Below are positions 3,001-54,000 of a stretch of DNA of 64,000 nt, one piece after another. Below the pieces are notes generated by a model, which worked only from the letters and a program-made list of their open reading frames with translations, made no database searches and was not told the DNA's origin. The first letter of the stretch is position 1, and the number at the start of each line of letters is the position of its first letter. The stretch is from Candidatus Omnitrophota bacterium (GTDB lineage Bacteria; Omnitrophota; Gorgyraeia; Duberdicusellales; 4484-171). The translations under genes were made by a program, and so were the position numbers. The stretch covers positions 96,001 through 160,000 of the forward strand of contig JAIPGM010000001.1 in assembly GCA_021735655.1 (NCBI GenBank), in the 5' to 3' direction.

Positions 3001-6000
3001 GTTGCAAGGCTATGTTATCGAAGTTGACCATGCTATCGTTGTTGGTGGAAAAGAGTTACGCCAGGTAAATGGTAAGGATCTTAAATATACCATTGAGGTT
3101 GATAGAAAAGGTAATTTTGAAATCGCCCGCGTACATATTGATCATGTTGAATTGGCAACTATTGTTAAGGATCCAGAAAGCGGTAATATAGCTGCTATTT
3201 TTAAACCGGAAACCGGTCTTGTCCCCGATGAGGCCATACTTAGGATTGCTCAATATATTGACATAAATGGTATTGATTCATTTAATGTATCGGATAGTGA
3301 AAAGCAGAAAATAATTGTTGTTGCTAACGATATTTTAGAAAGAGATCTAAGGGCAGTGCCGATTACCGATGGCGAAAGAGAGCTAGTATCTCAGTTGATT
3401 TCGCGAATAAGTTTTCAGGCTGATTTTGTGGCTAAAAAATACTATAAGCTTGGTCAATTGCATAAAATTGTACTTGCGGAAAAACCACGAACAATTAGCG
3501 ATATCATTGGTTCTGTTGGTAATGATCCGATAGCCCGCGCTAAGATTGATAATAGACTTAAGGTGATTAGCCAAGGTTTAGGCCGACAGATGCCACGCGG
3601 CGGAGTAGCAGCGTTGACTATTACCCCTAGTTTGGTTTTACAGCTCAATGGGAATATTATGCGTGAGTATCGTTTTAAAGAAGATCGTTTAGCCAGGCTA
3701 ATTGCTTTTGAACAAGGTCAGGAATTGGCAGTTAATGTAGCGTTTAATAACCGAGGTGATCCAGTTCAAACCTTTAAGCTTTCAAAAAGCGAGCATTCAG
3801 ACCGTCAGGTTGGCTCACAAGTAATTGCTTGGGGCCAAACTCCGATGGCCGAGCGTGATGGTGAAATTTCTGATGAAGCTGATAGCTCTGAAGCTAAAGT
3901 TATCTTTGAACAGGATATTCCGGAGACTGCTCGGGCATTTCAGGAATTTGCCGCTAGCTTGAAAGAGAAACATGGGGTAACGGTTACCGGAGATCTCTGG
4001 GAAGCGATGGGTAAAATGGGAATTGTTCCGTCAACCATGATTACTCGCAGCGTACTTTATGAATATCCGCATAGTGGTAATATTGGTTCAACCAGCTTTA
4101 CTTCACCGCTTATTGAAAATAACGGTAGGGTTGAGATTGATCCGCAATATCGTGATTCAACTAAACAGATTGAGATGCTTTTTGTGCCTAATGATCCGCA
4201 AGGCCGGACATTGGCAACTAGATTTATTACCGAAGAAGGGTATAACTGGGTTATTAATATGTGGGGGCTTAAGGGCACCGATGCCCCGTTAGGAGTTTTG
4301 CCGGCCAGCATAACTATTAAATATGAAAATGGTAAATATAGCGGTTATGAGTTTAGCCGCTTCAAGCAATCAATTAGCGGCGAAGAATTAAATGCTGAAT
4401 CAGGTTTGAATTTATATAGTGGCCTGCAGGCTTACGAATATGAAGTATTTAATTCCGCTGTTGTACGTAATGTAATTTATTCTTCACAGGCTCAACTTTT
4501 AGGCGAGCGTTATGCTTTTGTAACTGGCAGGCCGGCTAAGGAGATTTTAGGAACCTCAACTTTAAACAAACCAGCGGTTGAGACTTTGTTTTTTAATCCC
4601 AACTCATCTTTACGCAGCCCGGTCAGATCAGTGTTAACAGTTGAACAAGAGCTAGCTAATAAAATTATAATTCCTGAGATGATCGATGATCAACATTGGA
4701 TTACTCCGCCTGGCGAAACAGTGTTGATTCAAACCGATAAAGGCATTAAGCCGGCGGTTAGGGTTGTGGTTAAAGATCAATATAGCGTACGCTACGAAAT
4801 AGAAGAAGGTAAACAGATTACCTATATTGTTGCTTTAGAGAGTGAAGGTTCAGCAATCCATACTAGATTTTGGCAAGAGTCAAAATTCATCGGTGACAAA
4901 GCAATAACTAAATATCGCGTAAACATAACTGATGAGTGGAAGGCTGATTTAAAAGCTAGTGCAAAATATATAGCTTTTATGCCGCTTGTGCTTGCGGCAA
5001 TTGTGCTTTTAGGTTTTATTTTATCTAAGGTCGGCTTTACTCTAAGAAGGGCCTTGCAGCTTTTAGGATTAATCTTTGATGTCGTCATTAGACCGATACT
5101 TTTAATTCCTCATCTTTATAAAATATGGAAATACGGAAGCAGCAGTACCGGAGATTTCTTTAGACGTTGGCTTTGGCCGTTTGGCTTAAAGGAGTCTAAT
5201 CCTTATGTTCATGCTTATAAGGTTTGGCTAGCTATTAGCGGAAAAACCGACGAGAAATTTACTGAAGGCATTAACAACCCCGACACTACTGATACCACTG
5301 AAGCCGAGATTACTAAATTGTTTGAGGAGATGTATGAGTTCTCAGTTAAACTTAAAGACGCCCCTGATTTTGTATTGTATCTTGTTTGGAGAAAGAGGAT
5401 GGGGGCAACTGAAGCTGAAATGGAGGAGCATAAAGACATCTGGTTTGATATTATTGTAGCCAACCAGAACTTTACAAAAAAAAGCAAGGGTACAGTTACC
5501 ATGCAGCATCGTTTTCATTATGACGATCTTGGTAATTTGTTCAGAACCCGTAAGTTCATTGATCGTTATGAACAATACAGAGAAAGTGGAAATCTTGACC
5601 CTTACCGAAAGTATGTTGATTTATTAAACAGCGATCTTGGCGCTATCAACTTATCGCGCCGTCAGCTACTTGAAATAATCCACTATAGTGGCAGTTTAAT
5701 TAATTCATTAAAGTATAGGGGTCGACATTCTGAGTTTGGATTACCTAGCGAAGCAATACTTTGGAAAACATTTCGCACCCTTGACGGTGGACCTTCAGGA
5801 TTATTTGGTTGGTTGGGCATTGCTCGAATACTTTTCAGACAAGGCTCGATATTTGCTATAAGTTTCTTTGTATTCTTAGCTAAATACTTACCGTTAGCAA
5901 AAATTGTAGCCTTCCTTTTTAGTAATCCTTGGATTATCTTAGCTTTAATTGCTATTGCCCTTAGCTTAGGAATATATACTTATTTAAGAAGAAATTACGA

Positions 6001-9000
6001 CAAGGTAAGTCATATGGGTCCGGCCTCAAGAGCATTAGCTTATCCTTTTGTTTTAGTTGCTTCAATTGTTAGAAGCGTGTTGAATGCCTATACTTTAAGC
6101 ATAGCTGCCATATTTGCCGGTGGAGTATTAATGAATGATGCGGCAGCTTTCAGTGGTGTAACTGGGTTAGCTTCTTTTTCTGAGGCAGCTTTAGGTAGTT
6201 TAAAAGCAGTTTCCTTAAGTGATCCTTATGTATTAAGCTTTATATTGATGCTAGTTGCTTTGTTTGGGATATTTGGCTTTTTGGATAATATGATTTCAGT
6301 TAAATATAACCCAACCAAGAAAGAGTTCGGCTATGCACCTTTGAGAGACGCAAAGTGGTTTAGTGAAATTGTTTTTTCTGGTGGAATGATGTTGCTTACC
6401 TTTGGTATAAAATTTGTCCTAAACTACTTTACTTTTAAATTTGTAATGGTTCCAACTAGCAGTTATTTGGCGAGCTCTTATGCTCCGCCAGCTTGGGCTT
6501 TTAAAACATATTTGGCTATAATGGCTATTGTAATTGTTATTGTAATTACTGTAAAACTTGTTGCTTATATTAGAAAGCTTAATGCAGTTAGAAAGTCAGA
6601 TACGGGTAAAGTTATGGCAACAGTATGGAGTGATATCAAATCTTTAAAACTTGTTGCTTATGTTAGAAAGCTTAATGCAGTTAGAAAGTCGGATACGGGT
6701 TCAGTTATGGCAACAGTATGGAGTGATATCAGATCTTTAGGAAGAGGCGACATTGGCGATTGGATAGGATTTGCCTTTAAGTGGTTTAGTTTAATTGGCT
6801 TGCCTTTGTTGCTTTATTTCTATGGGCAAGTATTTTTAGTAATTGTCCTTTGGCTTCCTTTTGCTGCTTTTTATATACTGGATACTTTCTTTGTTTTCTA
6901 TATTTTAGAGGGTATAGCCGGATACTTGCGTGGCAGCTACCTTGGTTTAAACCGAATAAGGAATTGGCCGCAATTAGTGGCTAATTTTCCTCATTTAAAA
7001 CAGGCCATTAGGGCTAATTATGCTCATCGGGGAATTCGCAAGGCTGATGGGTCACGCCTAACTAAAGAAGAAAGAGACTCAATAGTTGAGGAGATTTGGA
7101 ATGGAATAATAGAGCATGTTTTTAAGGAGGATAGACTTTTCGAGGAAGAAAGGGATCGATATTCTTACACGGCTGATGGTGGTCCCAATCTCATAAAAGC
7201 ACCGGAAGAGGATGAGGCTTTCGATCGAATTATCTTTTTTGCAACTTCCATGTTCATGCATACACCGCGTATGCCCAAGACCTGGGCAGACTTACGTTCC
7301 CATGCTGTTGTTGATCCGGCTAATGATGAAGATGTCTTTTATAATTTTGAAGGGACAATTACTAGTTTAAATGAAGAAGCAAGGGTAGATCCTGACGATG
7401 ATTCTCTTCCCGGTGTACAGAAAACATTCTTGTGTTATGAGATTTATCTTTATTCTAACCAGTGGTTAAATTTTAAACGCCGAATGCAGGCCTCAGGAAA
7501 ATTCAGGAATACTGAAATTCAGGAGTTACAGAACATATACGATGCAGTTGTTAACGGAGACCTTACTTATAAATTAAAGTTAAAGGATGGAAGAAAGAGG
7601 CTAAGTAAAGCTTTGCAGGACGAAGTTCGTCTTTGGGCCTCTTATAGGTTCCAGCCGCTTATTCGAACTGTTCGGGGAATTGAATATCGTCGAGATGCTT
7701 TAAAGTTGATTGCTAATAGTGTTTATTTCAGGGGGCTTGGCTATACTGATGAGCAAATCAGAGAGGAAGTTAATAAGAAGTTTCGGTTTGTGCTTGGATA
7801 CCAAAGCTATGCTCGACAACAAGCGGATATGGTAAATCCAGAGAAGAAACTTTCAGAACGAATTGCAGCTAGATCTCGCGTAGAAGGCGTCAAAAAAATA
7901 ATGGAACTTTTCCCTGATATATTCGTTGCTAACTTAACTAAAGACGGAATATCAATTTGCATGCAAGGCGGCGAAGAAATAGGCAGCAAAAATGAGAAGG
8001 ATTTCTTTTGGTTAGGTCCTGAAGTTACTCAAGGTAAACCTGAACATCAAAAAGTTCTTTCAATCTGGGTTGATCACGACGGCGGTAATTATGATCATGT
8101 TGATACAGTGGATATGAACCAGGATGATTACTTTGAAGAAGCTTTAAAGCATCCGTTAGTCTTACAGGAGCATAGCCCTGATGTTGCTATTGTTGGTATT
8201 CCTGAGCATATTTTTACTGCTAGCTTTGGTAATGAGGGGAAACTGCTTGCCTTCTCTGATAGCACCTTTGCGAACATGGTTCAGAGGGTAATTGCTATGG
8301 GCGGTACACGTATGCATTATGGTCACCCGGATAGTTTCCGTAAACGATTTGCTAAACGTATGGGCTGGACAGCTTCTTCAAGCAAATTGAACGAAGATAT
8401 CTTTGCTGGATATCGGGCAATACGCTACGGTAAACGAATTAAGTTTATTGAATATCGCCGAGTCGGTAAGGCCCGTGAGGTTAAATTCGCGACTTCAGTA
8501 ATTTTATTTCAGAAATTCGGACGTGGTTCTGGTGAACAAGCTCATGATTTTATGTTATATGAACTTTATGAATGTCAGAACTTTGGTTTCACCAAAGGAA
8601 TGTTTTTCTTGATCAGCTCAATTGGTTTTTATATCAGGAAGCCGGCTGTTGTCTTAGCTGTCCAGGGTTACATCTTTACCTTAATCTTTATGGGTTTAAG
8701 TGGTTTTGTTTCTTTTCCTTTAGAAGCTTTTCTTGGAGTCTTGGGTGTTTTAGCTTCTCAGGGTATTGTGGCTACCGGTTGGTTTGAATTGATATTGCGC
8801 AAGGGCGTAATCCGAGGAACTTCTGATTTAATCGCGATGATGGCTACTGGAAATGTTCCTTTTTATATGGCTCATGTTTATACCAATGCTTTTGGGTTTT
8901 CTGAAGCTCAGGCCGGTATTGCTGGATACTTAGGAAGTGGTCGTGGACCGATGTTACATCATACTCCGATTTTCTATCCTAATTTTAAGTTAAGCTTATA

Positions 9001-12000
9001 TGGATTTTTAGAAGGAAAACAGCTTTCGAAAATGATGATTGTTAATATGGTATTTATTATAGCCGGTATAGTTATCTGGCAGAGTCCGCCGATTCTTTGG
9101 TCAGCCTTATTTATCTTGCTTCCTTTTGCGGCTTACTTTTATCCTAATATGTCTAACCCGGGAGCATTACCGATAGGCGTTACTGTCGGTAGATGGCTTG
9201 AGATATATAAATCTGATCTTTCTTTATGGCGCAAAACCATAGCTTCTGATAATCCTCTTTGGGAAGGTAAGAAATTAGACGTAGTGCTTCACGGAGCAAT
9301 ATTATTTCCTGTATTATTAATAGTCGGTGGTTTTATAGCTCTCTTTATTAAGTTACCGGTTACCGTAGGCCGTTGGTTAAATTCTCAATTTTCTGACCGA
9401 GGCCATGTAATCTCGACCTGGGCTATTAATTTGATTGGTGCGGTGTTTGGTGTGGTTTACTTAGCCAATATGTTGGTTGATAAATTACCTCAATTGGGCA
9501 ACATCATTGAAGCTTCACCGATGGCTGCGGCAATAGTTGCGGCTATAGTTATTGCTCGAGTCCTTCTTTACATTGGAAGTTACTTTTATAATTTGATCGC
9601 TGCCCGTTCTCATCAGGGAGTAAGTGAGGCAGTAGCGGCTTTAACTTTAGCTGGAATTATTCTTGCTGGGTTGAAGTGGGGTTTAGCGCTTAAGGCTTTA
9701 GTAGTTGGCTGGTTTAGCTGGTTACCAGCTTTGTTAGCTAGTCCGATTGGCCCTTGGGTTGCTGCAGTCTTATTGGTCCTTGCAGTCGCAGCAATTGTAA
9801 TTATTGCTTTACCGAGACGTATGCAAACTCATCCTACAGTACCGGCTTGGTTTGTTATTATGGGTGGTTTAGGTTTGCTACTAACAACATTAGGGGTACC
9901 AATAGTGATAAATACCCTTACTATATTTGCTGCGATTGCAGTGGGTTCGTTTGTTAATGGAATAGTTGCTCAGGATTTACCAAGAAAGGCTAAAGAGAAG
10001 AGATTAAAACGTAACCAAGCATTACCTTACCCGGCAACTATGCCAATAACTAATAAATTAGATCGTTCGCTTACTGAAAGTGAAAAAGAAAAAGTTATTT
10101 TAGCTTTTGGCGGAAGCGATGCCTTGGCAACTAATGGTATAGAGTTGAATGATCAAAATCTAGTAATGAGTCCGGCTCTTTCAGCTCCAGCTGAAGTAAG
10201 AGGCGGAGTTCTATATATAAATCCTAATACTTTAAGAGGTCCACCAGAACAGCTAAGAGTGATATTTGAAGGCCATGAATTAGCTCATTTTTTAGGAATG
10301 GATGAAATTCAAGCCAGACAATATACCATCGACTATCTTTTAGCGAATGGTTTACTTGAGAGCCACATTGCTTTCTTAGAGAATAATTCTATTGGTCTTG
10401 TAGCTGATCAGGAATGGTTAGAGGCTTTGAGCCAGAAATCAGTTTCTTTGGATAACGGAATTGAGCTTAAAGTTTATAAGTATAGGCCAGGAGTAAAAGT
10501 TGCTGTTGCTCAGATAGATCCGTCAATTTTACAGCCGCATATTTTAGTTTCCAGTGAGTTGGAAGGTAAGTTGCATTCGGTTGATCGTCGCTCTAACTAT
10601 GTATTGTATTATGATCATGAGACTGGCGAGCGTCTAGATAGCTTTCCTGAATCACGCCTAAAAGTATCTACGGTTACTAGTTTAATTGAAAGATTCCAGG
10701 ATCTTCATCCAGATTCACGAATAGAGATTATTACTGGTAACGAAAACCTTTTCTATAACAAGCCGATAGTTACAGTTATAGCCAATAAAGCTTACCATGC
10801 TGTCGGCGTTGACATAGAGAATCGTAATTATCCTATGCTTGTAATTTGGGCTGACGGTGCAGTAACTATCGAGGAAAGTGTTAGTTTCGAGTTTACTGAT
10901 TTTGATCAAAATGAAGTCAGAGTGTTGATTAATGGGAAAGAAGAAGATATACGCTATGCTACGGTTATCCAGTTAGTTTTAAATAAACAAGGTGTTGTTA
11001 ATCCGGGATCCCAGTTATATTTCTTTGATGATATCAAACATTTATTTGCGATGCCACGATTCAGCTCAGATGACTTTCCAGGAACTTTACCCAAGGGTTT
11101 GATGAGCGGAGCCATATTTTTTATGGCTGATCAACTTCTATCTGAAAATGCCCAGCGTGTAATCGACTATTACGATTCACAAAATCCAAAAACTGTTCAG
11201 GATTTTAATTTAACAAGCACCGTTTTTAGCAGAAGTGCCGATGGCCAAGATCGGGTAAGATTAATCAATATACCAGCAGAGTTATTAGAAGCTAGGTTGT
11301 TTGAAGCCGGATACTTACCTGATGACTATTCTATTGATCAAAGAAGAGGTGTAATTACTATAAAGCTTAGAGAAAATGTTTATCCTTTTCATATTATTGG
11401 AGTTACAAGTGATGGATTGGTGAAGGAGATAGTAGTTAATGGTAAATCTGGTAAGGTTGGTGTCACTGTAAGAGAAGCTGCCACTATTGCTCAAAAAGAG
11501 GGATTAATTAAGGCCGGAATAGTGGATCAAGGGATGACCGTTCGTTTAGATGTGGGTGATTTACGTTTTGGTAATGTTATAGTGGATAAACCTGGGCCTG
11601 AGAGGGCTAGTTCTTTAATCGTTTATACCCATATGCCTCTTGATAATGGTAAACAAAATAGACAATCGCCTCCCAGCGATGATAGATTAGGAGGAAGGGC
11701 TAGCCATAACGTGGCTGTGGCTGGTCCTGCTTCTAAGCCTTTGGATAATGGTCGACCAGGAAAGACCGAATGGAGCGATTTAATGAATCGCGTTGATCGG
11801 GTAAATGGCCTTAGGCAAGATGCACGAATAGCCGTAGTGCTTTATATAGTAGGAGTTGATCAAGAAATCGATGCCGGAACAAGAACAGCTCCTTTAACTG
11901 CCGGAGAACTACTGGTTAATGTTAATGGCGTAGGCCAGATAACTTCACGAAGAATTTTCCGAATAGTCGGTGAATTAAATCTTGCCGGAGTTACTTTAAC

Positions 12001-42000: not shown

Positions 42001-45000
42001 ACAGCAACCAGTAGTCGGGATGATGGATAATTACCATTTAAATGGTCAAAGGGTTCGCTTTGCGCCTGAGGAAAGTTTAGCTGTAGTCGCAGAATTTGAT
42101 CGTGGTAGTTTTAGAAGAGCATTCAGTCCAAAATTAAGGACGATGATTATTGAAACTCATCCCGATGATTTAATCATTCATGCCGGTGCTACGGCAAATA
42201 TGTTTGTTAGTGAAACTAGGGGAATGATAACTGAGCTTATTCCGCAATATCCGGGATACCGCAATAATATGCCAATTTTTGTTACAGCAGTTCCTGATCC
42301 AGCCGGAGTAACTGATAATTTTGCTTTTAATTTTTTCCAAGGCAAATTAACTTCTTTGGAGGCGGCAAAAAGAGAAGTCCGGGCCCAGGAAGCGATCTTA
42401 AATGCTGGTTTTATTGGTTGGAATCAGACTGGCAATGCCAGTGAAAGGCACATTAATCTTGATTTAAGATTAAGCTTGATTAAAGCAGTCAGAAGGCCGG
42501 ATGGAAGCCTTGATTCTTATCGTAGTGTTTTTCAGAGATTAACTAAAAGTGAACTTGAAAAAATTGACGCTGTTGTAAGGGAGAATGCGGCTGATCAATA
42601 TTTTATGGTCCATCCGTTTAGCAATCATCCACACCATCGGGTTGTAACTCATGCCTTTTTAGAAGCGATTTACACTCACAATCCGCAAGCAACTATATAT
42701 TTTTGGGCTAATCAAGAAGAACACCAACAGTTAATGACCCAGGCTAATGTATTTTTTGTTTTTAGTGAGGGCATGGAGAATTGGAAAGGGTTAATTATTT
42801 TTAACGGAAACCATTCGCAAAATGAACGCCGAGGCGGAAATGGTGAATATTATTGTGATGCTGCTCGGAGTATGGATTTAGCTACCTGGGAAAATTTACA
42901 AGAAAGACTTGCTCGAGAGGAAACTAGTTCGGTAAATTTAAATAGTTTACCGCTTTGGCGACCGCATGCAGAAAGATTTGTAAAGGTAAGGATTGAGCCA
43001 GTCGGTCAAGATGTCCTGAGCACTCCTTTGGATAATGGGAAATCAACTAAGCAGCCAGAGAAAGAGGTAGTTTCTGATTCCCAAAACGATTTTTCTTTAG
43101 AGCAACTGAAAGCGCTTACGGTTGGTAGCCCTAATCTTTCTTTCGGGGTAGGTATTTTAGCTCGTCATCAAGAGGTGGATTTAATTATTCAGGCTTTTGG
43201 TAAGAGAATAATCAAGCGCGGTGCTTTTTACCAGACAAGACCTTGGGAGGAAACCTTAAAAACCGATTTAGCTTCACCTAACGCAGCTAAAGTAGATTTA
43301 GCCATTAAAACATTAGCCAGTTTAGGCGGAGATTACGCGGCCAGAGCTAGGCGCTTTGAACAAGATATAACCGTAATTGAAGTCGACCTGCCAACCCATT
43401 TTCTTTTATACGGCCAGGATTTAACCGGCGAGATTTATTATCAGCTTACTCATATTGGTCTTGAGCGAAGAATAATTTATCTTCCAAGTAAATATCTAGA
43501 GGATGCAAGTGGACCAGAGTTTGTAGCTACTATTTTTAACCACGATCAAAGCGAGCTTGAGGAGTTCATTCCTTTTTTATTAAGTGGCCGAAATATCACC
43601 GATCAAATGGTTGAGCAGGCTCATCAACGGGCCATGCAAGACGATCCTTTTGGTGTTTACCCCCAGGTCGATGACTTGCTTTCTGATATGCAGGCTTATG
43701 ATGATATGTTTACCCAATCGATGGTTGTAGCTCAAATTGCTGCCGTAGATTCAGCTGTTACTACAAAGAATCGTCAGCTATTAGATGCTTTAGCCTCCCG
43801 CACGCCAAGTGGGCCAGAAGCCTTAAAGGCTAAAGGCCTTTTATTTGAACTAGCCAACCTTGAAACTAAAATTGGTTGTTTGTATGAGGCATTAGGCCAA
43901 AGAAAAAGTGCAATCAGTCATTATCGTAGCGGCGTAGCCGCATTGTCCAGAGTCTCAAAAACAACTATAATTGATACTGGTTTGTTGCCGCTTCAATTAC
44001 AGGTAAGAATGCTTTACCTCTATGCTCGCGAAGGCATGTTTGGCCGTCTTCGAAGTGGTTTTCGTAAATTTTCCCAAGTTAAAATTGGTCGCCAAGCTGA
44101 GGCTTCTGAGGTTGAGCTTTTTGAATGGTATATGGATAGCAATTTTGTGCCGGTAAGAAGAGCTGTGGTTGGAATCCTGCGGCATCACATTACTTGTGGG
44201 CATAACAACTACCCTAAAGATCAGGTAATGACTACTGTTAGATATATTGAACAGTGTCAATATATTCCTTCGGATATAACCCCACGTCTTAAACCAGCTT
44301 ATCTTCAAATTAGAAACACTCCAAGCTTAGCTAATGTTTTTTCAGCCGCCGAATATTTTAGGAGACATAAAGTTCCCGGCTGGGATAAGGTTTTAGCTAA
44401 AACCTTAGGCGGTAATGGCCAGATGGAGGAAGAATATTTGGGTGAATTTGTTGAAGCTAAAGCAGCTGAAGATCAAGTTTGTTATTCGCGGGTAATCGAG
44501 CTTAGCCTTGAGGGCCACGGTCCAGAGATAGATTTTGTACTTGAAGTTGATCGGGCAAAGTATCATCGTAACAATCAAGGGCAATATGGTAATTTAGATG
44601 AGGGAATTTATCTTGGTGAATCCAAGACATTTAATCGACAATTTAACTTAGATTTGGTTACCGAACATACAATTGATGATAAACAAAGCAAATATCGTTT
44701 AGTGGCCGCAAGGTTAAATAAGCTTCCCGATCCAGTTTTTAACGGCCGCATGAAGGGTATTGTTTTTGCTATGGGGGGAAGCTCGGTTACGGCAGCGGGA
44801 GTTCTAGAGTTTAGGTTAAGACAAAGAGAAGTGGATGAGGGATTAGAAACTTTGAGCTTAGTTGAATATGTAGCTTACATCCCGGATACTATTGATGCTG
44901 ACGAAGAGATAACTTTAAGTGTTAAGGAGGAAATTTATATTATTAAATGGGTAAGAGAGTTAGTTGAGCGGGGAGTAATTGAAGAAAATGAGGTTACCCG

Positions 45001-48000
45001 CGTTGAGCGTGTATTTATGGAAATAGCTTCAACTAGCAGCCGTTATGTATTACAAAGTATAGTTTGTGCAAAGTTAAGAGAAAAAACCGGGGAAGGTGAT
45101 ACTTCTTCAGCCAAGCGTCAGTCAGAACAAATTTGGCAAGAAATTATAGCTGAGCTAGAGGCTGAAGCTTTTCCAAATCGAAAACCACTTGATAACGGCC
45201 GCGATGGTCAAGCTGATTTAGCTCGTCAACAGTTAGCTGAAAGTTTGAGAGGGCGCTTGACCGGATTGCTAGATTCTGGTCTTAATCCGGAAAATAGCCT
45301 ACTTGTAACTCATGTTGGTCGACCGAATAAGGCTGGCACGCTTAGGGGTTTGGGTTTACGAGTTTACGAGATGGTTATTCAAGGAGTCAATAAACTTTAT
45401 TATGACCGACGGACTGTAAGAACCATCCCTTTATTTTCTAATAGTTTAGATTGTCCTTATCCTGGTGGTTATCATTCCCAGGGTGGAATGCTTACACCGG
45501 AGGCTAGGCAGGATATTGTTAGCCGGGGAGATGTTTTTATTCTAAGCGGAGGTGAGCTTGAAATATGCTTGCAGATGACTTTTAGCGAATTAATCGATGC
45601 TTTAAATCAAGCTGGAAGAACTACGGTGATATTTGTTCCGCTTGAAGCAACTAGTAGATTTATAAATTTAGAGTCGGCAACCGGCTATGCTGATTATTTA
45701 AAAAGCCGAGCGATAAGCTATGAAGAGTATGATTTTACTAAAAACGAGGTAACTCTAGCTCAACCGGCTACGCCACAGGTATTATTAGTTTGGACTAAGA
45801 CCGCTCAGGAAACTCTTTATTGGTTAGATTTCATAGCTAGGCATCAAAGACTTGTTGCTGAGAAACTTATTGAATCTTTGGGCTCAACTGAGGCAAATGT
45901 ACGTAAAGATGCCGCCGCTAGAATAATTACTATTGCTAAATTAATTGGTCACAACCAAGAAGATAATATATTTGGTCGTCATCCTTTAGATTGGCTTTAT
46001 GGTCATGATGACCATCGCCAGACTACGCCGCAAGAACGCAGGCTTTTATCGGAAGTTTCTTGGTTTCCTTCTGATGCTGTTCATCGAGATGAGGAGCAAG
46101 TACTTTTAACCAATCGCCGAAGAGTAAAAAGCAGAGTAACTGAAGTAAGAAAATCTTTAAGAAATAGGATTTTGTTTGACGTTAAGGCAAAATTGGAATT
46201 ATTAAAACAGCGTTTAGCTGATTCTGAAATTCAGGCTGCAGTAGATTTGGTAAGCTTTGGCTTTGATTCAAGTTTACCGGATCAAGGATCACGCAAGATA
46301 GCTGTTCTTAGAAAATTAGAGAGAAATCTCCAAGAGCTAACTACCCAGATAGAAAGGGCTAAAGCTTCTGGTAGTATTGGAGTGATAATTGTGCCTTTAA
46401 TTGATGAGGCTTTAAGTAGTCTACGGCGGCACGTAAATACGATTAGACATTGGTCGGATTATAAAAAAGGAAGCTATGTGCTTAGGCAGTTAGTTGATTG
46501 GATGGTTCGAAAGCATTTTGAGCCGCAGCATGCTCAATATCGGCAGATAAAATCAGCTAAAGTTTTGGGACGAGTCGATAACGGAGATGAAAAATTTTGG
46601 CAACTTCCGATTTGGCCGTTGGCTGATAACGGTGAGGTTGATTTAGGCTTAACTGGCTGGATGCTTACTTCGCGACAACGGGCTCCGCCAGAATATTTTC
46701 AAAGAAGAAAAGTTTCCCTAGCCGAATTAGCTGGTTTAAAACCAATCCAACTTACCTTATTTAATCTTGATGATTTTACTGGTTCTGGGCAACCCTTAGA
46801 TAATGGCCGAGTGCCTCTCGATAATGGTAAACCTTTATTAGAAAATAGAGATAAACCTAAAGAAACAGGCAGCCACCTTAGAGTAATGCTGGGTTTTCTA
46901 AGTCCGATCAGAGATGAAACCAAAATAGATGAACCCTTGAGTATTTCCGTGTTAGCTGGAGTATTAAGAGATGAGTTTAAGGGCACGGTAGACGTTGCCA
47001 CGGTCCACCCTCTTGTTGAAAAGGGAGGCCTTGAAGGGGTAAAGGAAAGGATAAGAAAAGAACAGCCGGACATCTTAGGATTATCTTTGTTTTTTGGTAG
47101 TTTAGATTATTTAAGAGAATTAATGGCTTATATACGTACTTTGCCAGAAGAAGTTAGGCCTTTAGTGATACTTGGCAATGTGTTGGCTAAATATAATTTA
47201 GGATTGATTTTAAAGGAATTTCCAGAAGTTGGAATTTGTACTGGAGAAGGAGAAAATACTATACGAGATTTTGTGCGTTATTACCGGGGGGAGATGGGTC
47301 TTTTGCAGATTACCAATTTTGCCTATATACATCAAGGGGTACCGAGAGTAAATTTACCTCAACAACGCACTGATTTGTCTGATATTGGAATGCCTCAGCG
47401 GGATATTTTTTCTCACGTCATCAGAACCGGCGGGGTCGTATTTTTAGAAACAAGCCGTTCTTGTTCGCATAATTGTGCAATGTGTAGTCGTAAGACTTAT
47501 TTGGAAGGAGCAGAATTTTCTCAAGTAGGTTGGCGTGGACGTCCGCTTGAGGATGTCATAAGAGATATGGCTGATGTAAGTCGTCAAGGAGCCAGATTTG
47601 TTAATTTCGTTGATGAAGATATTTTTGGTGGAGGCCTTGTACGGGTTATGGAGCTTGCCCAGAGAATTATTTTTGCTAAGGCACGAGGCGAGATTCATCC
47701 CGATTTAACCTTTGGCAGTTCAGCTAGCGTGAGATCAATCTATGTCCAACCAGAAGGTGATACTAAAGCTAGGGCTCAGATTGAAGCCGATAACGAGCTG
47801 AGGATAGAGGCACTTACAAGATTAAAACAAGCTGGCTTAGTGGTTTTATTTACAGGTATCGAGTCAGGTTCTCCTACTCAGCTTGCTCGATACGGAAAAG
47901 ATGCCACAGTATTTGAAAATGAAATGGCCTTACGGATAATCGATGAAGCAGGCATACACAATGTTCCTGGTTTTATTATGTTTGATCAAAAGGTCACAAT

Positions 48001-51000
48001 CGAGGAGCTGCGAGAGGATATTGCATTTTTACGAAGAACCGGGATGGATAAAAAAATTACCTATCCGCTTAGAACTTACTATCCTTTAAGGGGTGCTATG
48101 TGCACTGATCAACTGGTGGTAGATGGTCTTGTGGATGCAGAGCGATATAATGCAAGTCAGTTAGCCTATGAATACGTTTATGAGGATCAAGATGCTGCTA
48201 CTTTGTTGTGGGCTTTAAAATCTTGGGAAAAAAGCCAAATGCTATTCTTTTGGATTATTAAGATAATTTTTCGTTCTTCACGGTTTGGTGAGCTATCACC
48301 GGAGACACAAGCATTATTCAAAGAGGTTATGGCTGATCAAACTGTTATTTTACTTGATTATTTGGAAGATTTAGTTAATTGCTCATCAAGTTCTCAATAC
48401 CCAGAGATTGATCTTAGATATAGTGATAGATTAATAAATACCATGCTGTCTATTTTAGGCTTAATTAACGAAGGTCAGCTATCTATAGATGGCTCACATC
48501 TTTCGGAAGTTATTTACGGAAGCATAACCAGGGAAATCGTCCGTGTGCATCTTTTACATTTGCCATTTACTTTAAATGATATTTTTGAAATGGTAAAAGT
48601 AAGGTTTGGTGCTGAACTTAGTCTGCCTATGCTCAAGAGAGCTTTAAGCAGCTTTGTGAACGAGGGCGCTATGGAGTATTGTGAAGGCAGGTATTCATTA
48701 ACAGCTAAATTTTGGGATTTAAAAGGAATGCCTTATTATGATTTGCCAAGACCATACCGAGGAGGCGAATCTAACCTTGCTCAAGCGAGTTTACCAGTTC
48801 CACATCTTGATGTATTTAGGCAAAGAGCAGGCATTTTAGAGTTAGAGGTAGCTTATAACCAAGTCAGAGTTTTTGGGGAAGTATTATACGCTGCAGTTGG
48901 TTTTATCCTTTTTGCTATAGTTGGTGTTTTGATTATCCATACTTTGGCTGGAGGGTTTGTGGTTGGCTTTTTCGGATTAGTTATATTTGTTTATTTTTAT
49001 TCCAAATCGTTTCCTAAATCAAAATATAAAATAGTTGAGCAAGGGTTGAAAATGTTTAGTGGTCAAAGAATTGGTAGCCAAGATTTCATAAAACTATCTT
49101 TGGTGTTTAGGGACCTTTTAGCTGATGATTGCGATAATATAATAATACAACTTCTTGCTCGATCGGGAATCGAAGCAGCTAATGAGCTTGCCCAGAATAG
49201 GTACCTAGAGGAAACCTTGGGCGTGCAGTCTCCCCTTGATAATGGTAAAGATCCCTTTCTTACAGTCGATATTAGCCAATTGCCAGGAATGCTGTTAAAT
49301 AGAAATTATCAGAAAGCAATTGCAATATTTGAGAGCTTAGACGTTTTTAAAGACGGTGACGCTTTGAGAGACTTGCTTTCTGGCTTCAGGGAAATGTATG
49401 AAAATAATTACGATTTCAGGTCACGTCTTCTAGAATGTTTCATCCATTTATATGAAACCCAGCGCCAGCAGTGGTCTAAGGCCGAAAGAACCTTAAGGGT
49501 AATCTATGAACAGCAGACAGCTGAGGAAGATTTATCTTTGCTGTGGGTGAGGAAAATTGCCGTTGATATTTGGTCTGAGATTGCAAGTAGAGAGATAAAA
49601 CTTTCTGATGAACAAATGGTACCGGTTGAACAGGTAGGAGTTGATCTACAGGTAACTGAGGTCTGTTGCTATGAGTGTCCTTGGTGTTTATATCATCACA
49701 CGCCAAAAGGCCCGGCCCGGAGAAACCTTCACCGTTTAAGCGAAGCCGAGGCCGTAGACATAGTCAGTCAGTTTATGGAGGCAGAAACCTTTTCTTTGGC
49801 GCCGTTTAGTTTCACCGGCGGGGAACCTTCAATGAATCGGAAAGTTTTATTTGCTGCTCTTGAGGCAGCTACCCGACGTCAGCAAGCTGGATTTATTAAT
49901 GTATTTAGTAATGGTATTTGGGCTCGAGACGTAGAGGCTGCTGAGCGTATGCTAAACGCTCTTGCTGAGAAAGCAATCATCAGACTGGTTATCAATAGTG
50001 GGCTTTTGCCCGAAGGCCTTGAGCGGATTAAGCATATTGTTGACGCTTACGGCAGATTGGATAGTTCAATACAATACCGCATAGAACTTGGTATAGCCGT
50101 TCCTTTATTGGGCGATGAGATTATAACTTATCTTGAATCAGTGCGGCAAGCGCTTAAGGGAAAATTTCTTATTCAGCCGTCTAATGGCGCTATTACTGCC
50201 GTAGACATGTTTGAAATGTATCATTTAACAAATTGTAAGGTTGGTATTCAATTGTCTAATAGTCGTATTCTCATTATACATCCTGAATCGATTGCTATAA
50301 GTCATGCTAATAAGGGTCGCCTTGCTTTAAGAGAAAAGCAGATTGAAGCTTACCGGCTTAACCGCCCGGTTTGGTCGTCATGGCAAAGCAATGGGTCGCG
50401 CTATGTGCAATTTGTGGCGCAAAGTGACCTTTGGGTTTTAGCTAATCCTTTTTTCTGGGGCTATGGCAATCCTCGGCAGTGGAGTTTTGATTTTATGAAT
50501 GTTAGTCAGCTACATGAAGCCTATCAGCGTGATCCGCTTTGGCAGATGCTTTCAACTGTGCCAGCCGAGGAGATTATAGAACAAATGCGGCAGCTTTTTG
50601 TCACAGTCCCTCAGGGCGTTGATCGTTGGTTATCTGGTCTTCATGCGGTCCATCCGATTGCTAGCAGTTTTGCCGCTGAACTTTTACAGGATTCGCGCGT
50701 GCGTTATTGGCTAAGAAGATGGCATAGTGGTGATTCAGTTAATGAGCCATATCCGGAGTTATTGATGCCGGAATTAAGTCAAAAACAAAATTCACCTAAA
50801 TCAATTCCTTTGGATAACGGCCGAGTGCCTCTTGATAATGGTAAACCGTTCATGCAAAAGTTTAAACCTTCAGAAACTCTAGGCTATTCAGTGATTAACG
50901 GTCCTAGACATAGAGTGATGATTATTAATGTTTTGCCGCAAGATAAACAAGCTTCTTTAGAAACTCAAACTCAGAGCATAATTTCACAAGTAGATTCAGC

Positions 51001-54000
51001 CTTAGCTAGAGAGGGTTTTAATAATAGTGATGTGGTTAAACAGGATATGTTTTTACGTGATCCGAGCCAAAGACCCGAGGTTAAAGAAATGCTAGGTAAT
51101 TATTATGGAAGGGCGCCTCCGGCAACCAGTTTTATTCATCAGCCGCCGATAACCGGTGAGCTAGCTGCTACTGAATTGATTGTCATTAAGGGGGAGGGGG
51201 TCCAAGTCTACCGAGTAAATAAATATGCAACCTTAATTAATGCTGACGGACTTTGGATGCTTTATGTGGCTGGAATTGAACCGGATGCTAATTTAACTGA
51301 TACCTATCAGCAGGCCTATAATACTTTTTTAAAGTTACAGACTGTTTTAGAAGAAGTTAGGCTTGGCGCGGTAAGCTTTAAATTTGAAGATGTAATTAGA
51401 ACCTGGCTTTTTGAACGTGAGATAGTTGGTTTTGATGATCAAGAAAAAACTCAAGAGAGATATCAAAAGCTTAATCAAGCCCGACGCGTTTTATTTGATA
51501 CGGCTGATTCTGGATCAGGGGTTATTTTTGGCCGTCGTCTGCATTGTCCATCTTCTTGGCTTCTTTCCTGGCGAACGAGGATTGCTTTTTGGTTTTTAAA
51601 GTTTTCTTTTACTCATCGAATAAAGAAATTCGAAAAAATATTATTCAAATTAGCCCGAGTCAGGCCTCCGGCTTCAACCGGAATCGGTGCTTTGCCGGAA
51701 TTTCAAGCCCAAGGAATAAACGTTGCCATTGGTCCGGCTTTTGTTTTTGAAGCTTTAGCTTTGTTCGCTGAAAGTAATCGAGGCGATGTTTTAATTCAGT
51801 TTATTGAAAACCCCGAACAAACTCCGGCTCATGCTTATTCCAAAAAAGTATTACCCAAGGGAGAAAAGAAAAAGAAAAAAGCTTCCCCGGCTTTTAGCCG
51901 TGGTATGGCTGTATTTATGGATTACATTTGGATAATCATTTCTGGAACAGCTTCAGTTAAAGGTGAAAAGGTAGTCTCTGTTGGTGATGTAAGAGGTCAA
52001 GCTGAGACCACGATTGATAATTTAAGATTAGTAGTTGGTCAGGCTGGAGCCCAGTTAAAAGATATACCGCAATTAAGAGTGTATATCAAGAATTGGCAGG
52101 ATTATCAGACTGTAAGGTCGGTAGTTGAAAAGCATTTTCCCGATACTCCGGCCCTATATCTTTTGGCTGATGTCTGTCGGCCAGAGTGGTTAGTTGAAAT
52201 TGAAGCCATGGCTTTTATTCCTCGAGAAGAAGGGGTTTCTAAGCCTTTAGACAATGGTAAAAATAGAATTCGGCAAGGTGAGATCTGGTCTCCTCACCGT
52301 GGCTGGCGGGATCCAGCTCCCTTGCCGGATTATATATCTGTTCCGCTCGACAATGGCAAAAGAACTCTAGATTCATTGCCAACCAGACTCAGGGTTTTCT
52401 TAAGACTTAATAATATTGATCCAGCTAAAACTTATTTATTTGCCATGAGCGGCGGTGATTGTGCCGGGCCAAATTCAGCTTATTATGGTGCAGTTAGAGA
52501 GGCTGATAAATATGGTTATAAAGTATTAGGGGTGTTGAATGGTTTTGAAGGGTTAGGGGCTAATCCGGATTTATTCGTTGATCAACTTATTTATATTACT
52601 TCCGAAGGCATTGAGCGATTAAAAGGAATGCCGAGTATTCATGTTGGGTCTTCTCGGGCTAAATTTAAGGATAAACGCGAAAATATTTTAGTTAATTGCG
52701 CTGCTTTTGCCGGAGTAATTTTTGTTGTTGGTGATGACCATTCTAAGCAAACCGGCGAGCTAGCTGAAAGCGGCATAGCAACTATAGCTATTCCCAAAAC
52801 TATTGATTATGACTTTTTGGCGGAATCTTTAGGGTCACATAGTGCTATTTCTGAGGCCCGGCGACTTTACCTACGGGCTCATCGCATGGCCCAAGAGGAT
52901 CATTTTGTTCAAGTTATTGAATTTATGGGACGTGATGCTGGCTGGCTAACCTTTTTGGCAGCTCAGCAGGTTGCTGGAGCTAACTTTATTCTTCTCCCGG
53001 AAAAAAGCGCTGGCTTTAAGGATGTTTTAATTAAAGCTTTGTCAGTTATTTTAGAGGAAGGTTATTTGACTATCGCTATGGCTGAAGGTTATAGCTTTAG
53101 AGATTTCCAGGAAAAAGATCGTATCTTTGGAGGGCCGCTGTTTTATAAATTCTTAGATATTATACCGTTTCTTAAGGCTAAATTTTATTCTAAAGGCCAA
53201 ACCGATGTACATGGTAACCCCAAATTATCAGGAATAGCTGAGTACTTGTCTTTAGCTATTCGTTATTTGCCACGCTTGGCCAAGCATGATGCCGATATAA
53301 ATAGGCTTTATCAAGCGATTAAACTTAAGTACCCACATTATTTTGGTACTGACTTGCGTTATAAGGCTAAGGGCGAGGTAATGCAGAATGTTCGTTTATC
53401 GATTTTAGGCTATATTTTAAGAGGCCTTCCTTCAGATGATTACGATACTAGATTGGGAGAGGCTTATGGAAGAGCCGCAGTTAGGTTACTTCAGGCCGGA
53501 AAAAGCGGTTTAGAAGTTACAATTAGTAAAACTTGTACTTTGCGTTCATCTAGTTGGTTAAGAGCTATTCTTAGGGGGGAAGGGGTGAAAGCTGTTCCAA
53601 TAGTTGAGGTAGCCATAAAACAATATGTGGCTAAAAGCGATGATCCGGCTAAGGCGGCTATAGCTTTTCATCTTAGCGATAAGAAAATAGCTGAGGCCGG
53701 GGTTTGGTGGCAAGGCTCCCAAGAACTTATTACCCATAAAAGAGTAAGTCAGCTAGTCCGCGAAAAAGATTTAGGCCCGAGCCCGCGCGAACAGGCGCGC
53801 AGATCTCAATATAGCGCAGCTATTTCAGCAGCCATCCATACTACAACATCAATTTTCGGTTTTAGAAAGGTCGATGGTTTAGATTCAGATGATTTAGCTC
53901 TTTATGCTGGCGATCAAACTCCACGCGATAAGAGTTTGCTTCCGGGACATAAACAGTATTGCTTGGCTGAGACCAAAGGCAGTACCATGATTCTTTTAGC

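Follow-up and report, generated by a model that had tools for sequence, protein, structure and literature searches.

The 64,000-nucleotide (nt) stretch studied here (hereafter the window), from contig JAIPGM010000001.1 of a Candidatus Omnitrophota bacterium (GCA_021735655.1), raises the question of what is made from a gene in which ~20 recognisable enzymes and a membrane glucan synthase are encoded by one frame, and of what role is played by the joints between them. A preliminary description had read nt 4960-53500 as part of one polypeptide uniting what looked like a supply line, from sugar phosphates through nucleotide sugars to a glucan. Our answer differs in the second part. With about even confidence, we consider the product to be a membrane-anchored, co-translated string of mostly intact enzymes around a GT48 synthase, in which a short repeated peptide, PL(D/N)NG, would mark the joints as recognition sites, cleavage being the leading reading of their role. 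The identity of the protein and its architecture are held with high confidence.

One frame of the + strand, starting at nt 2, stays open over 21,333 codons, with 0 TAA, TAG or TGA, which bears out the proposal of one polypeptide. In the remaining five frames, stops number 1,041-2,590 per frame, and no open run there exceeds 135 codons. The frame is open at both window ends and is an internal part of a gene of more than 64 kb. The GC content is uniform along the window (~0.40), GC skew is positive throughout, and the amino-acid composition is that of an ordinary globular protein with no low complexity. A reassigned stop codon was ruled out, as the frame has no stop codon of any kind.

Giant genes are known from this phylum. 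They encode up to 85,804 amino acids (aa) in Omnitrophota (West-Roberts et al. 2023, bioRxiv 10.1101/2023.11.21.568195), and 916 Omnitrophota proteins of at least 10 kaa (thousand aa) have been catalogued (Nielsen & Lui 2026, bioRxiv 10.64898/2026.06.07.730766). One class of the latter survey, the 'multi-enzyme metabolic clusters', has a Pfam module of sugar metabolism and a regulatory one (methyltransferase/HATPase_c/HAD); the function of the class was left open. With at least 21,333 aa, the predicted protein lies above the 10,000 aa that define the giants, and the window very probably encodes a member of this class. As in the clusters of the Omnitrophota class Gorgyraeia, an open reading frame (ORF) of more than 10,000 aa includes many Pfam families and none is dominant: 12 distinct families score above the gathering cut-off, with at most 2-3 copies per family (PFK twice, radical SAM 2-3 times). 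Sugar metabolism is likewise combined with HAD, methyltransferase, HATPase_c, radical SAM and NUDIX units, transmembrane helices are scattered, the sequence is largely unique, and the nearest relatives are proteins of Omnitrophota metagenome-assembled genomes (MAGs). Pfam was scanned in overlapping 1,000-aa tiles at E<=0.01 and again with offset tiles at E<=1, and about half of the protein is unmatched. In the published giants, C39/S8 peptidase, SecA and dockerin domains are emphasised; the window showed none of these. No signal peptide or secretion domain was seen in it either.

Cleavage of the giants into smaller products was named a central open question, the cleavage points being not known, which blocked structural analysis, and C39 or S8 peptidase domains were proposed as possible processing enzymes (West-Roberts et al., 10.1101/2023.11.21.568195). 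Both papers favour extracellular or cell-wall-targeting roles for many giants (10.64898/2026.06.07.730766; 10.1101/2023.11.21.568195). Neither the 2023 nor the 2026 paper mentions GT48/glucan synthase, callose or PFK in giants, linkers, cleavage and polyproteins do not occur in the 2026 text (10.64898/2026.06.07.730766), and an inter-module punctuation motif is described in neither, which for West-Roberts is based on a search for PLDNG alone. The kind of protein is already described; the novelty lies chiefly in the LDNG-type punctuation and, to a lesser degree, in the GT48 head unit.

The pentapeptide PLDNG occurs 50 times in the frame, against 0.015 expected from composition, and 3 more sites have the variant PLNNGK, giving 53 in total (Table 1). 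The residue after PLDNG is K 26 times and R 17 times. The punctuated region spans nt 11636..62212, from aa 3879 onwards, and the leading 3,878 aa, GT48 unit included, are free of such sites; one SLDNG follows the first of two HExxH modules (nt 10445-10459). The codons of PLDNG vary synonymously (Leu from both TTR and CTN, Asn from AAT 30 and AAC 20 times) and the sequences flanking it are unrelated between sites, which indicates that the motif is conserved as a peptide and not as DNA or RNA, and that its copies are not recent. For the same reasons, a role in DNA or RNA (recombination joint, internal start or frameshift site) and an origin by recent duplication were both rejected. The motif is mentioned nowhere in the searchable literature.

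The sites lie between domains. None of the 50 PLDNG falls inside a Pfam envelope or BLAST-defined module (P ~3e-7 at 26% domain coverage). Between sites, the segments are 2-1,195 aa long (median 261 aa) and divide the chain after the GT48 block into at least 53 units, with every recognisable enzyme in a unit of its own. For example, PFK#1 (aa 9649-10280) sits between sites 9613 and 10290 and PFK#2 (aa 17458-18180) between sites 17448 and 18180, the latter site abutting the final residue of the BLAST-defined module; the ends of both PFK modules were set independently, by alignment to relatives without the motif. Moreover, a guanylate kinase (profile positions 2-177 of 182) fills an inter-motif segment of 214 aa and a PCMT fills one of 261 aa. 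Each site is followed by ten residues of strongly hydrophilic character (Kyte-Doolittle -1.1 versus -0.21 overall).

The same pattern is present in a second genome. A 13.25-kb contig of another Candidatus Omnitrophota (L003; GCA_041678705.1, JBAYNQ010000011.1, 1-13248, GC 0.40) is one open frame of 4,416 codons with 12 [S/P]LDNGG sites, all between domains and with variable codons. A complete phosphoglucose isomerase (PGI) lies between its sites 1675 and 2257 (E 4e-203, profile 1-486, 676 bits), and further segments contain, one each, HAD + Peptidase_M54, HPr, HEAT + PRK, and PFK. When this PFK is aligned with PFK#2, the match begins right at the motif on either side. The window and, as a replicate, L003 have what would be expected of a polyprotein, one short and uniform site that separates independent units, and over the 53 + 12 sites the Asn of the N-G position is never replaced by Asp. 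All other sampled relatives (~132,000 residues) lack an LDNG-type motif.

Twice in the window, two sites stand only 2 residues apart as the tandem PLDNGRVPLDNGKP (nt 46793-46828 and 50807-50842). One tandem precedes the B12-radical SAM unit and the other the RidA unit, their contexts being paralogous; as a degenerate DNA pattern they had no match in the genome or metagenome contig collections scanned. In addition, a duplicated peptide of ~29-36 aa, KQNRQSPPSDDRLGGRASH[N/D]VAV[A/T]GPASK (nt 11651-11737 and 12578-12685), is bracketed by punctuation on both sides; cutting at these sites would free it as a small peptide. Another long protein may have punctuation of its own lineage: P0174 (L004, ~7299-8906; JGI 3300037479 Ga0394879_0001857), a PFK/response-regulator protein of 3,235 aa, contains RSEVR four times at a spacing of 154-196 aa, with unrelated flanks and no Pfam match.

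Table 1. Features of the giant frame. Residue i of the protein starts at nt 2+3(i-1) of the window, and all listed features are on the + strand; for the punctuation sites, the first base of each is given.
Feature	Position (nt)	Position (aa)	Strand	Basis
Single ORF, gene-internal	2..64000		+	Stop count over all six frames
GT48 beta-1,3-glucan synthase unit (predicted)	4970..9946		+	Pfam, FKS alignment, hydropathy
Glucan_synthase/GT48 (PF02364) match		2401-2898	+	124 and 131 bits vs 37.2
HExxH module copy 1 (HELAHFLGMDE), putative zincin-like	10028..10438	3343-3479	+	Directly after GT48 transmembrane bundle
Punctuation sites 1-14	11636, 11738, 12002, 12563, 12686, 13538, 15650, 16127, 18122, 18446, 22046, 22640, 23624, 24461		+	
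Punctuation sites 15-28	25088, 25988, 26930, 27641, 28838, 30869, 31454, 31718, 32516, 33785, 34376, 35033, 36473, 36602		+	
Punctuation sites 29-41	37211, 39137, 39185, 41672, 41891, 43025, 45185, 46793, 46814, 49232, 50807, 50828, 52244		+	
Punctuation sites 42-53	52343, 54539, 55175, 55844, 56462, 56819, 57584, 59096, 59783, 60872, 61541, 62198		+	
HAD-IA phosphatase (phosphoglycolate phosphatase/beta-PGM-like)	13586..14230	4529-4743	+	Pfam 67.5 bits
Class-I methyltransferase (marginal)		4957-5083	+	Pfam
HExxH module copy 2 (HEAYHLDGDDE)	18515..18958	6172-6319	+	Directly after transmembrane hairpin
PEP-binding domain, PTS Enzyme I/PEP-utilising family	21017..21772	7006-7257	+	PF02896 62-64 bits
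HATPase_c_2 (RsbW-like), sub-threshold	24563-24892		+	Pfam
NUDIX-like, sub-threshold	25376-25654		+	Pfam
HATPase_c (GHKL ATPase)	26567..26917	8856-8972	+	36.2 bits vs 26.4
PFK#1 (PFK fold + conserved extension ~290 aa)	28946..30841		+	Pfam 95 bits
PFK#1 Pfam match		9661-9992	+	PF00365
PCMT (protein-L-isoaspartate O-methyltransferase)	31826..32371	10609-10790	+	Pfam 80 bits
Guanylate kinase	34415..34993	11472-11664	+	Pfam 59 bits
GlpX-type (class II) FBPase, ~60-aa insertion	37361..38281	12454-12760	+	Pfam 121 bits
GT35-like (glucan phosphorylase-like)	39569..41671		+	Pfam 30.3 bits vs 27, marginal
Phosphorylase/GT35 profile match		13524-13791	+	Pfam
B12-binding + Radical_SAM (CSHNCAMC) and second radical SAM (CCYECPWC)	46934..49972		+	Pfam, NCBIfam, motifs
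B12-binding + Radical_SAM match		15645-16010; Radical_SAM part 15816-16010	+	Pfam
RidA/YjgF-fold unit, two RidA-like halves, FkbO/Hyg5-like	50948..52216	16983-17405	+	Pfam 88.8 bits
PFK#2	52373..54541		+	Pfam 120 bits
PFK#2 Pfam match		17481-17830	+	PF00365
Third B12-radical-SAM-like unit	62282..63388	20761-21129	+	Self-BLAST, 26% identical to first

The unit ahead of the punctuated region is a complete synthase unit with intact catalytic motifs and a predicted beta-1,3-glucan synthase, as had been proposed. Its two PF02364 matches (E-values 8e-36 and 7e-38) cover profile positions 3-509 of 819, the C-terminal transmembrane part being only weakly matched. A hydropathy scan gives a layout of ~7 hydrophobic helices, a cytosolic glycosyltransferase domain (nt 7202-8695) and ~8 further hydrophobic helices. 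Residues ~698-1337 of yeast GSC2/FKS1 align to it with an E of 7e-22, over the last N-terminal transmembrane helices, the entire cytosolic domain and the next transmembrane helix. Among the residues essential in FKS (ED motif, D-A-N motif, Y849, E851, K1082, N1085; PMC12715860), the ED motif (LNEDIFAG) and the equivalents of K1082 and E851 are kept, D-A-N reads D-M-N, N1085 is replaced by His, and Y849 is ambiguous. The sole close relative of the region is P0001, a fragment from a Candidatus Omnitrophota MAG (49% identity), which also aligns to aa 1427-2728 of the window at 32-47% identity; the other 187 GT48 matches are all eukaryotic callose/FKS synthases at 25-32% identity. The protein search was confined to word-sharing candidates, and within that scope P0001 is the only other bacterial homolog; a GT48 peptide pattern had no match in the genome contig collection scanned, and an exact 55-mer of the window had none among the metagenome contigs. 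The unit thus resembles yeast FKS1/GSC2 and plant callose synthases in its order of transmembrane helices, cytosolic domain and transmembrane bundle, in the ED, D-x-N and K1082-equivalent positions, and in its 25-32% identity to plant and stramenopile callose synthases. However, it differs from them in its bacterial host, in being embedded in a protein of more than 21,000 aa and in the His at N1085, and no Rho1-type regulator is expected.

Of the 12 module types that the preliminary description had named, Pfam recovers ten, two of them weakly, and two were not found. The HAD phosphatase, the two PFKs, the GlpX-type fructose-bisphosphatase (FBPase) and the histidine kinase-like module are recovered above cut-off (Table 1). 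All four HAD motifs are present (WDLDGT, ATGT, K, GDSAGD), and the best NCBIfam matches of this unit are the PGP and bPGM families, all under cut-off. The GlpX unit aligns to E. coli GlpX (1ni9, E 1e-18) and keeps DPLEVT, EGTRDEAP and GGTSEG, with IPDGD changed to IADGN, one Asp to Asn (NCBIfam equivalog 94 vs cut-off 259). The supposed enzyme using phosphoenolpyruvate (PEP) holds in its PEP-binding domain, where Glu, Asn-Asp and the Cys (CGQ) of the Enzyme I C-domain (2bg5) are kept and where only positions 212-508 of TIGR01417 are matched, and fails in the phospho-His (swivel) domain, which the module does not match with either PF00391 or PF05524. Similarly, the glucan phosphorylase survives as a marginal GT35 match (NCBIfam 24 bits vs 553) and not as a phosphorylase: it reads EAGPTSFGN where solved phosphorylases have EASGTSNMK, with Asn at the position of the lysine that binds pyridoxal phosphate (PLP), and without this lysine it cannot be a phosphorylase. 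A single-sequence AlphaFold model of it was unusable (predicted local distance difference test, pLDDT, 36). The UDP-sugar pyrophosphorylase and the GH-A-like TIM barrel were not recovered, neither PF01704 or PF00483 nor any glycoside-hydrolase family being matched at E<=1 over the whole protein with offset tiles. The only GGLGS of the protein (aa 13230) was considered as a UDP-glucose pyrophosphorylase (UGPase) motif and rejected by its spacing: it lies 294 aa upstream of the GT35 profile start, close to the spacing expected for the N-terminal GGLG of phosphorylases in rabbit numbering, and probably belongs to the GT35-like module.

As for the regulatory and modifying units, the B12-radical SAM and the PCMT are above cut-off and a class-I methyltransferase marginally so, whereas the RsbW-like ATPase, a second methyltransferase and two PIG-L deacetylases are sub-threshold matches only, as are a TPR and a NAGPA-like one. 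A second radical SAM scores 27.2 vs 29.5 bits with its CxxxCxxC present. The PCMT has the SAM motif VLEVGTGSG (NCBIfam 104 bits vs cut-off 188). Two units had been overlooked, the RidA unit, which has its C-terminal Arg motif, and the guanylate kinase, with the P-loop GVSGSGKT (78.6 bits vs cut-off 160). Most modules are not degenerate: the GT48, HAD, GlpX, guanylate kinase, PCMT, RidA and two radical SAM units keep their catalytic signatures, as do PFK#2 and, apart from D103N, PFK#1. Exceptions are the GT35-like unit, the Nudix box (incomplete by eye), a third radical-SAM-like unit and, with its PEP-binding domain only, the PEP-utilising unit. The best NCBIfam match of each module reaches 24-113 bits against cut-offs of 106-824, and such scores, far under the equivalog cut-offs, mark them as divergent paralogs and not canonical housekeeping enzymes. 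We consider it reasonably probable that most modules are enzymatically active.

The two PFK modules, which are only 23% identical and represent ancient paralogs, both score above the PF00365 cut-off and have D127, D129, MGR and R252. Aligned to 1zxx, PFK#1 reads GGNDH (D103N, G104D) and PKTIDAD, with MGR and R252 kept. Aligned to E. coli PfkA, PFK#2 retains D103, T125, D127, D129, MGR171 and R252 and has Lys for G124; it reads VGDDH and PKTIDYD. The GGDGS/PGTIDND of ATP-type enzymes is missing from both, and for this reason the phosphoryl donor is probably not ATP and could be pyrophosphate (PPi). Lys124 together with Asp104 is the signature of PPi-type PFKs. The modules share with PPi-dependent or 'mixed' PFKs (TIGR02483, PFK_mixed) the fold, T125, D127, D129, MGR171 and R252, as well as Lys for Gly124 and an Asp in the GGDG region, whereas Asn103 in PFK#1 and the C-terminal extension of ~300-350 aa in both set them apart. 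Their NCBIfam scores are 109-113 bits against subfamily cut-offs of 253-431.

The relatives of these modules lie in other long proteins. Four module types have their best homologs in Candidatus Omnitrophota MAG proteins at 40-57% identity. PFK#1 is 40-51% identical to modules of six long Omnitrophota proteins and PFK#2 54-57% identical to modules of P0121, P0127 and P0128, and an exhaustive search with PFK#2 over 1.84 billion representatives found 17 proteins at E<1e-30, nearly all long. A 25.3-kb stretch (L001; GCA_041645095.1, JBAZQR010000001.1, 1-25314), one open frame of 8,437 codons, has the order guanylate kinase, guanylate kinase, PFK1-type, PFK2-type, HAD, whereas the window has HAD, PFK1, guanylate kinase, PFK2; the two PFK types are adjacent in L001 and 7,000 aa apart in the window, and the guanylate kinase of the window is 38% identical to a module of L001. 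The deposited 'partial 6-phosphofructokinase' P0121 (5,105 aa) is only part of the open L001 frame, which is another giant gene. Other relatives join the PFK#1-type module with NDK, dCMP deaminase, PRK, starch synthase, GH77 or ribulose-phosphate epimerase. A third locus (L002; GCA_026387165.1, JAPLMG010000099.1, 1-20205) has six consecutive same-strand ORFs of 511-4,963 aa with short gaps, which include RmlD, epimerase, UDPGP, DHQ synthase, HAD, CofD, PFK and ROK modules, and resembles the giant architecture broken up into separate frames.

From these data, the theme of sugar-phosphate and glucan metabolism in one ORF is well founded: it recurs in L003 and L002 and fits the 'sugar metabolism' Pfam module of the Omnitrophota giants. 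The complete ordered supply line to the GT48 unit is not. PGI, phosphoglucomutase (PGM) and UGPase are undetectable in the window by Pfam at E<=1, and with the steps from fructose 6-phosphate to UDP-glucose missing such a line is not supported; the GT35-like unit without the PLP lysine and the shuffled order in relatives are also contrary to it. Differences in module order and combination among relatives argue against a fixed channelled pathway, and the relatives argue for a lineage-wide module pool rather than an assembly line.

Immediately after the GT48 bundle, and again after a transmembrane hairpin, lies a module of ~140 aa with an HExxHxxGxxE at equivalent positions in the two copies, which self-BLAST recognises as a paralog pair; the whole protein contains exactly these two HExxH motifs. 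The module is 44-46% identical in three other long Omnitrophota proteins (P0128, P0275, P0276), and HExxH, a downstream Glu and LLxSHxxFLEN are invariant across the copies. A PDB profile search gave no match, an AlphaFold model from two sequences had a pLDDT of 52, and a Foldseek search with it gave nothing significant, the best hit being a BlaR1 zinc-protease domain at E 0.15 and TM-score 0.23, which is not evidence. A function of the module as reader or cutter of the motif can be offered as a lead only. The Peptidase_M54 domain of L003 is archaemetzincin-like, with HETGH.

The crude hydropathy scan places a transmembrane bundle at aa 1657-3315 (the GT48 unit), single helices at ~aa 4262 and ~aa 18855, hairpins at aa 6060/6087 and 16294/16320, and a multi-helix unit at aa 20529-20720. 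All recognisable metabolic enzymes are within aa 4280-18855, and without any cut this whole stretch could stay on the same side of the membrane. A topological paradox was tried as an argument for cleavage and rejected, since the apparently single helix at aa 16294 is a hairpin and the uncut topology is consistent; cleavage is hence not forced by topology.

We propose that the enzymes would be anchored by the GT48 bundle and the scattered transmembrane hairpins, as a co-expressed and stoichiometric set for sugar-phosphate, nucleotide and modification chemistry around a glucan-exporting synthase, with no ordered assembly line, and that the string may have been assembled from a lineage-wide module pool. 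Each joint would be recognised by one partner acting in trans or in cis, most likely a protease cutting the chain into separate proteins, which would make the product a bacterial polyprotein; candidates for this protease are the pair of conserved HExxH modules or a peptidase encoded in another part of the gene. Processing is favoured because the core of the motif is invariant, its flanks are lineage-specific, tandem sites stand two residues apart, and the segments have the size of whole proteins. Cleavage may tentatively be called the likeliest single role of the joints. The full version of the proposal, in which PL(D/N)NG joints would be genuine processing sites and the giant ORF a polyprotein cut into ~50 proteins by a lineage-specific protease co-evolving with the site, is possible but more doubtful. 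The same doubt applies to its presumed products (enzymes of upper glycolysis/gluconeogenesis, nucleotide and radical SAM enzymes, small membrane proteins) and to its presumed site forms (PLDNG[K/R] in the window, [S/P]LDNGG in GCA_041678705.1). Precedents for such a product are viral polyproteins and the MARTX toxins; in the latter, a cysteine protease within the chain makes the cuts between effector domains. The window resembles them in its protein-sized units within one chain, its short, uniform and lineage-specific site and its exposed linkers. It differs in that it is known from sequence alone and has no recognised protease domain, that its units are metabolic enzymes, and that with more than 50 units its scale is far larger.

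An invariant core with lineage-specific flanks would also be expected if the joints were docking or modification motifs, for a chaperone or scaffold, with the chain left intact and a single partner co-evolving with the site. A variant of this idea is a switch by Asn-Gly deamidation or isoaspartate formation, on which the PCMT of the chain would act: no dipeptide deamidates faster than Asn-Gly, and the Asn is never Asp in 53 + 12 sites. This alternative is rather unlikely, however. Redundant cleavage accounts better than docking for the two PLDNGRVPLDNGKP tandems, with sites only two residues apart, and for the spacers of 2-38 aa; the L003 fragment showed no PCMT, and no binding domain was recognised. 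Slightly less likely still is an uncut assembly line that channels sugar phosphates to UDP-glucose and beta-glucan, in which the PLDNG peptides would serve as uniform linkers, either flexible or of the beta-turn type. Asn-Gly readily forms turns, the transmembrane hairpins would hold the uncut chain at the membrane, the GT48, HAD, two PFK, GlpX, PEP-binding and GT35-like units share one frame, and relatives add PGI, UDPGP, PGM-type and starch-synthase modules. Besides the gaps in the pathway, the altered GT35-like unit and the differing module orders given above, this alternative has to accommodate the many units unrelated to glucan (PCMT, guanylate kinase, RidA, radical SAM, HATPase), and a passive linker needs neither 53 identical five-residue cores maintained through synonymous change nor lineage-specific flanks.

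It is improbable that the modules are mostly non-catalytic, whether as decoys, as binding modules or as secreted or injected effectors acting on the metabolism of prey. All modules are highly divergent by their NCBIfam scores, the GT35-like unit has lost its catalytic Lys, PFK#1 has D103N and the Nudix box is incomplete, and the literature preference for extracellular or cell-wall-targeting roles, together with a predatory-effector view of Omnitrophota giants, would suit such functions. In contrast, signatures are kept in nine modules of the window, the PGI embedded in L003 is with 676 bits a bona fide enzyme, radical SAM and kinase chemistry require cytoplasmic cofactors, and the window has no visible secretion domain. 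That the frame is an artefact (assembly chimera, pseudogene or a frame open through an unusual genetic code) has a negligible probability: without stop codons no reassignment is needed, composition is uniform, catalytic motifs are conserved, the synonymous variation at 53 peptide sites shows purifying selection, and comparable all-ORF contigs exist in NCBI MAGs (L001, L003).

Several points weigh against the reading that we favour. No recognised peptidase family is among the Pfam matches of the window, and the HExxH module, only a putative zincin, is also present in relatives without the LDNG motif. In L001, whose modules are homologous, the 8,437 aa are free of the punctuation motif, which implies that proteins of this kind do not generally need to be processed at such sites. 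The scattered transmembrane hairpins make sense as anchors of an uncut chain. Every NCBIfam score is far under its equivalog cut-off, and with D103N in PFK#1, the Asp to Asn change in GlpX and the GT35-like unit without its lysine, some modules may be non-catalytic. Finally, the topology is that of a crude hydropathy scan, the gene ends lie outside the window, and expression, activity and cleavage are predictions from the sequence.

In the window, a GT48 unit of eukaryotic type whose catalytic motifs are intact forms part of a bacterial giant protein, and the 53-fold, peptide-level punctuation of protein-sized units, replicated in a second genome, provides concrete candidate cutting points. 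The motif is also a rational rule for dividing giants into units for structure prediction and expression. If the polyprotein is true, a cleavage grammar would be defined for bacterial giant genes for the first time, and core metabolism would be expressed in a manner new for a bacterium. Moreover, if the embedded enzymes are the working copies of the cell, pathway calls for these genomes need revisiting; this idea is suggested by the complete PGI in the giant ORF of L003 and by the 2026 survey, in which the threshold had to be relaxed for pfkA to be detected in every genome (10.64898/2026.06.07.730766).

Some further features were identified along the frame. The two adjacent radical SAM modules are separated by a transmembrane hairpin and one punctuation site. 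In the third B12-radical-SAM-like unit, to which Pfam is blind, C-x8-C-x2-C replaces CxxxCxxC. A stretch of 2,281 aa (aa 7340-9620, nt 22019-28861) containing the HATPase-like, NUDIX-like and PIG-L-like units had no homolog at E<=1e-3 in a word-indexed search of 5.8 billion proteins. The PFK relatives of the window were found only inside long Omnitrophota or Elusimicrobiota proteins; among the latter, P0131 (4,065 aa) and P0132 (7,422 aa) have embedded PFK modules in Endomicrobiales and Elusimicrobia ('Candidatus Liberimonas magnetica'), indicating that enzyme-string proteins are not confined to Omnitrophota.

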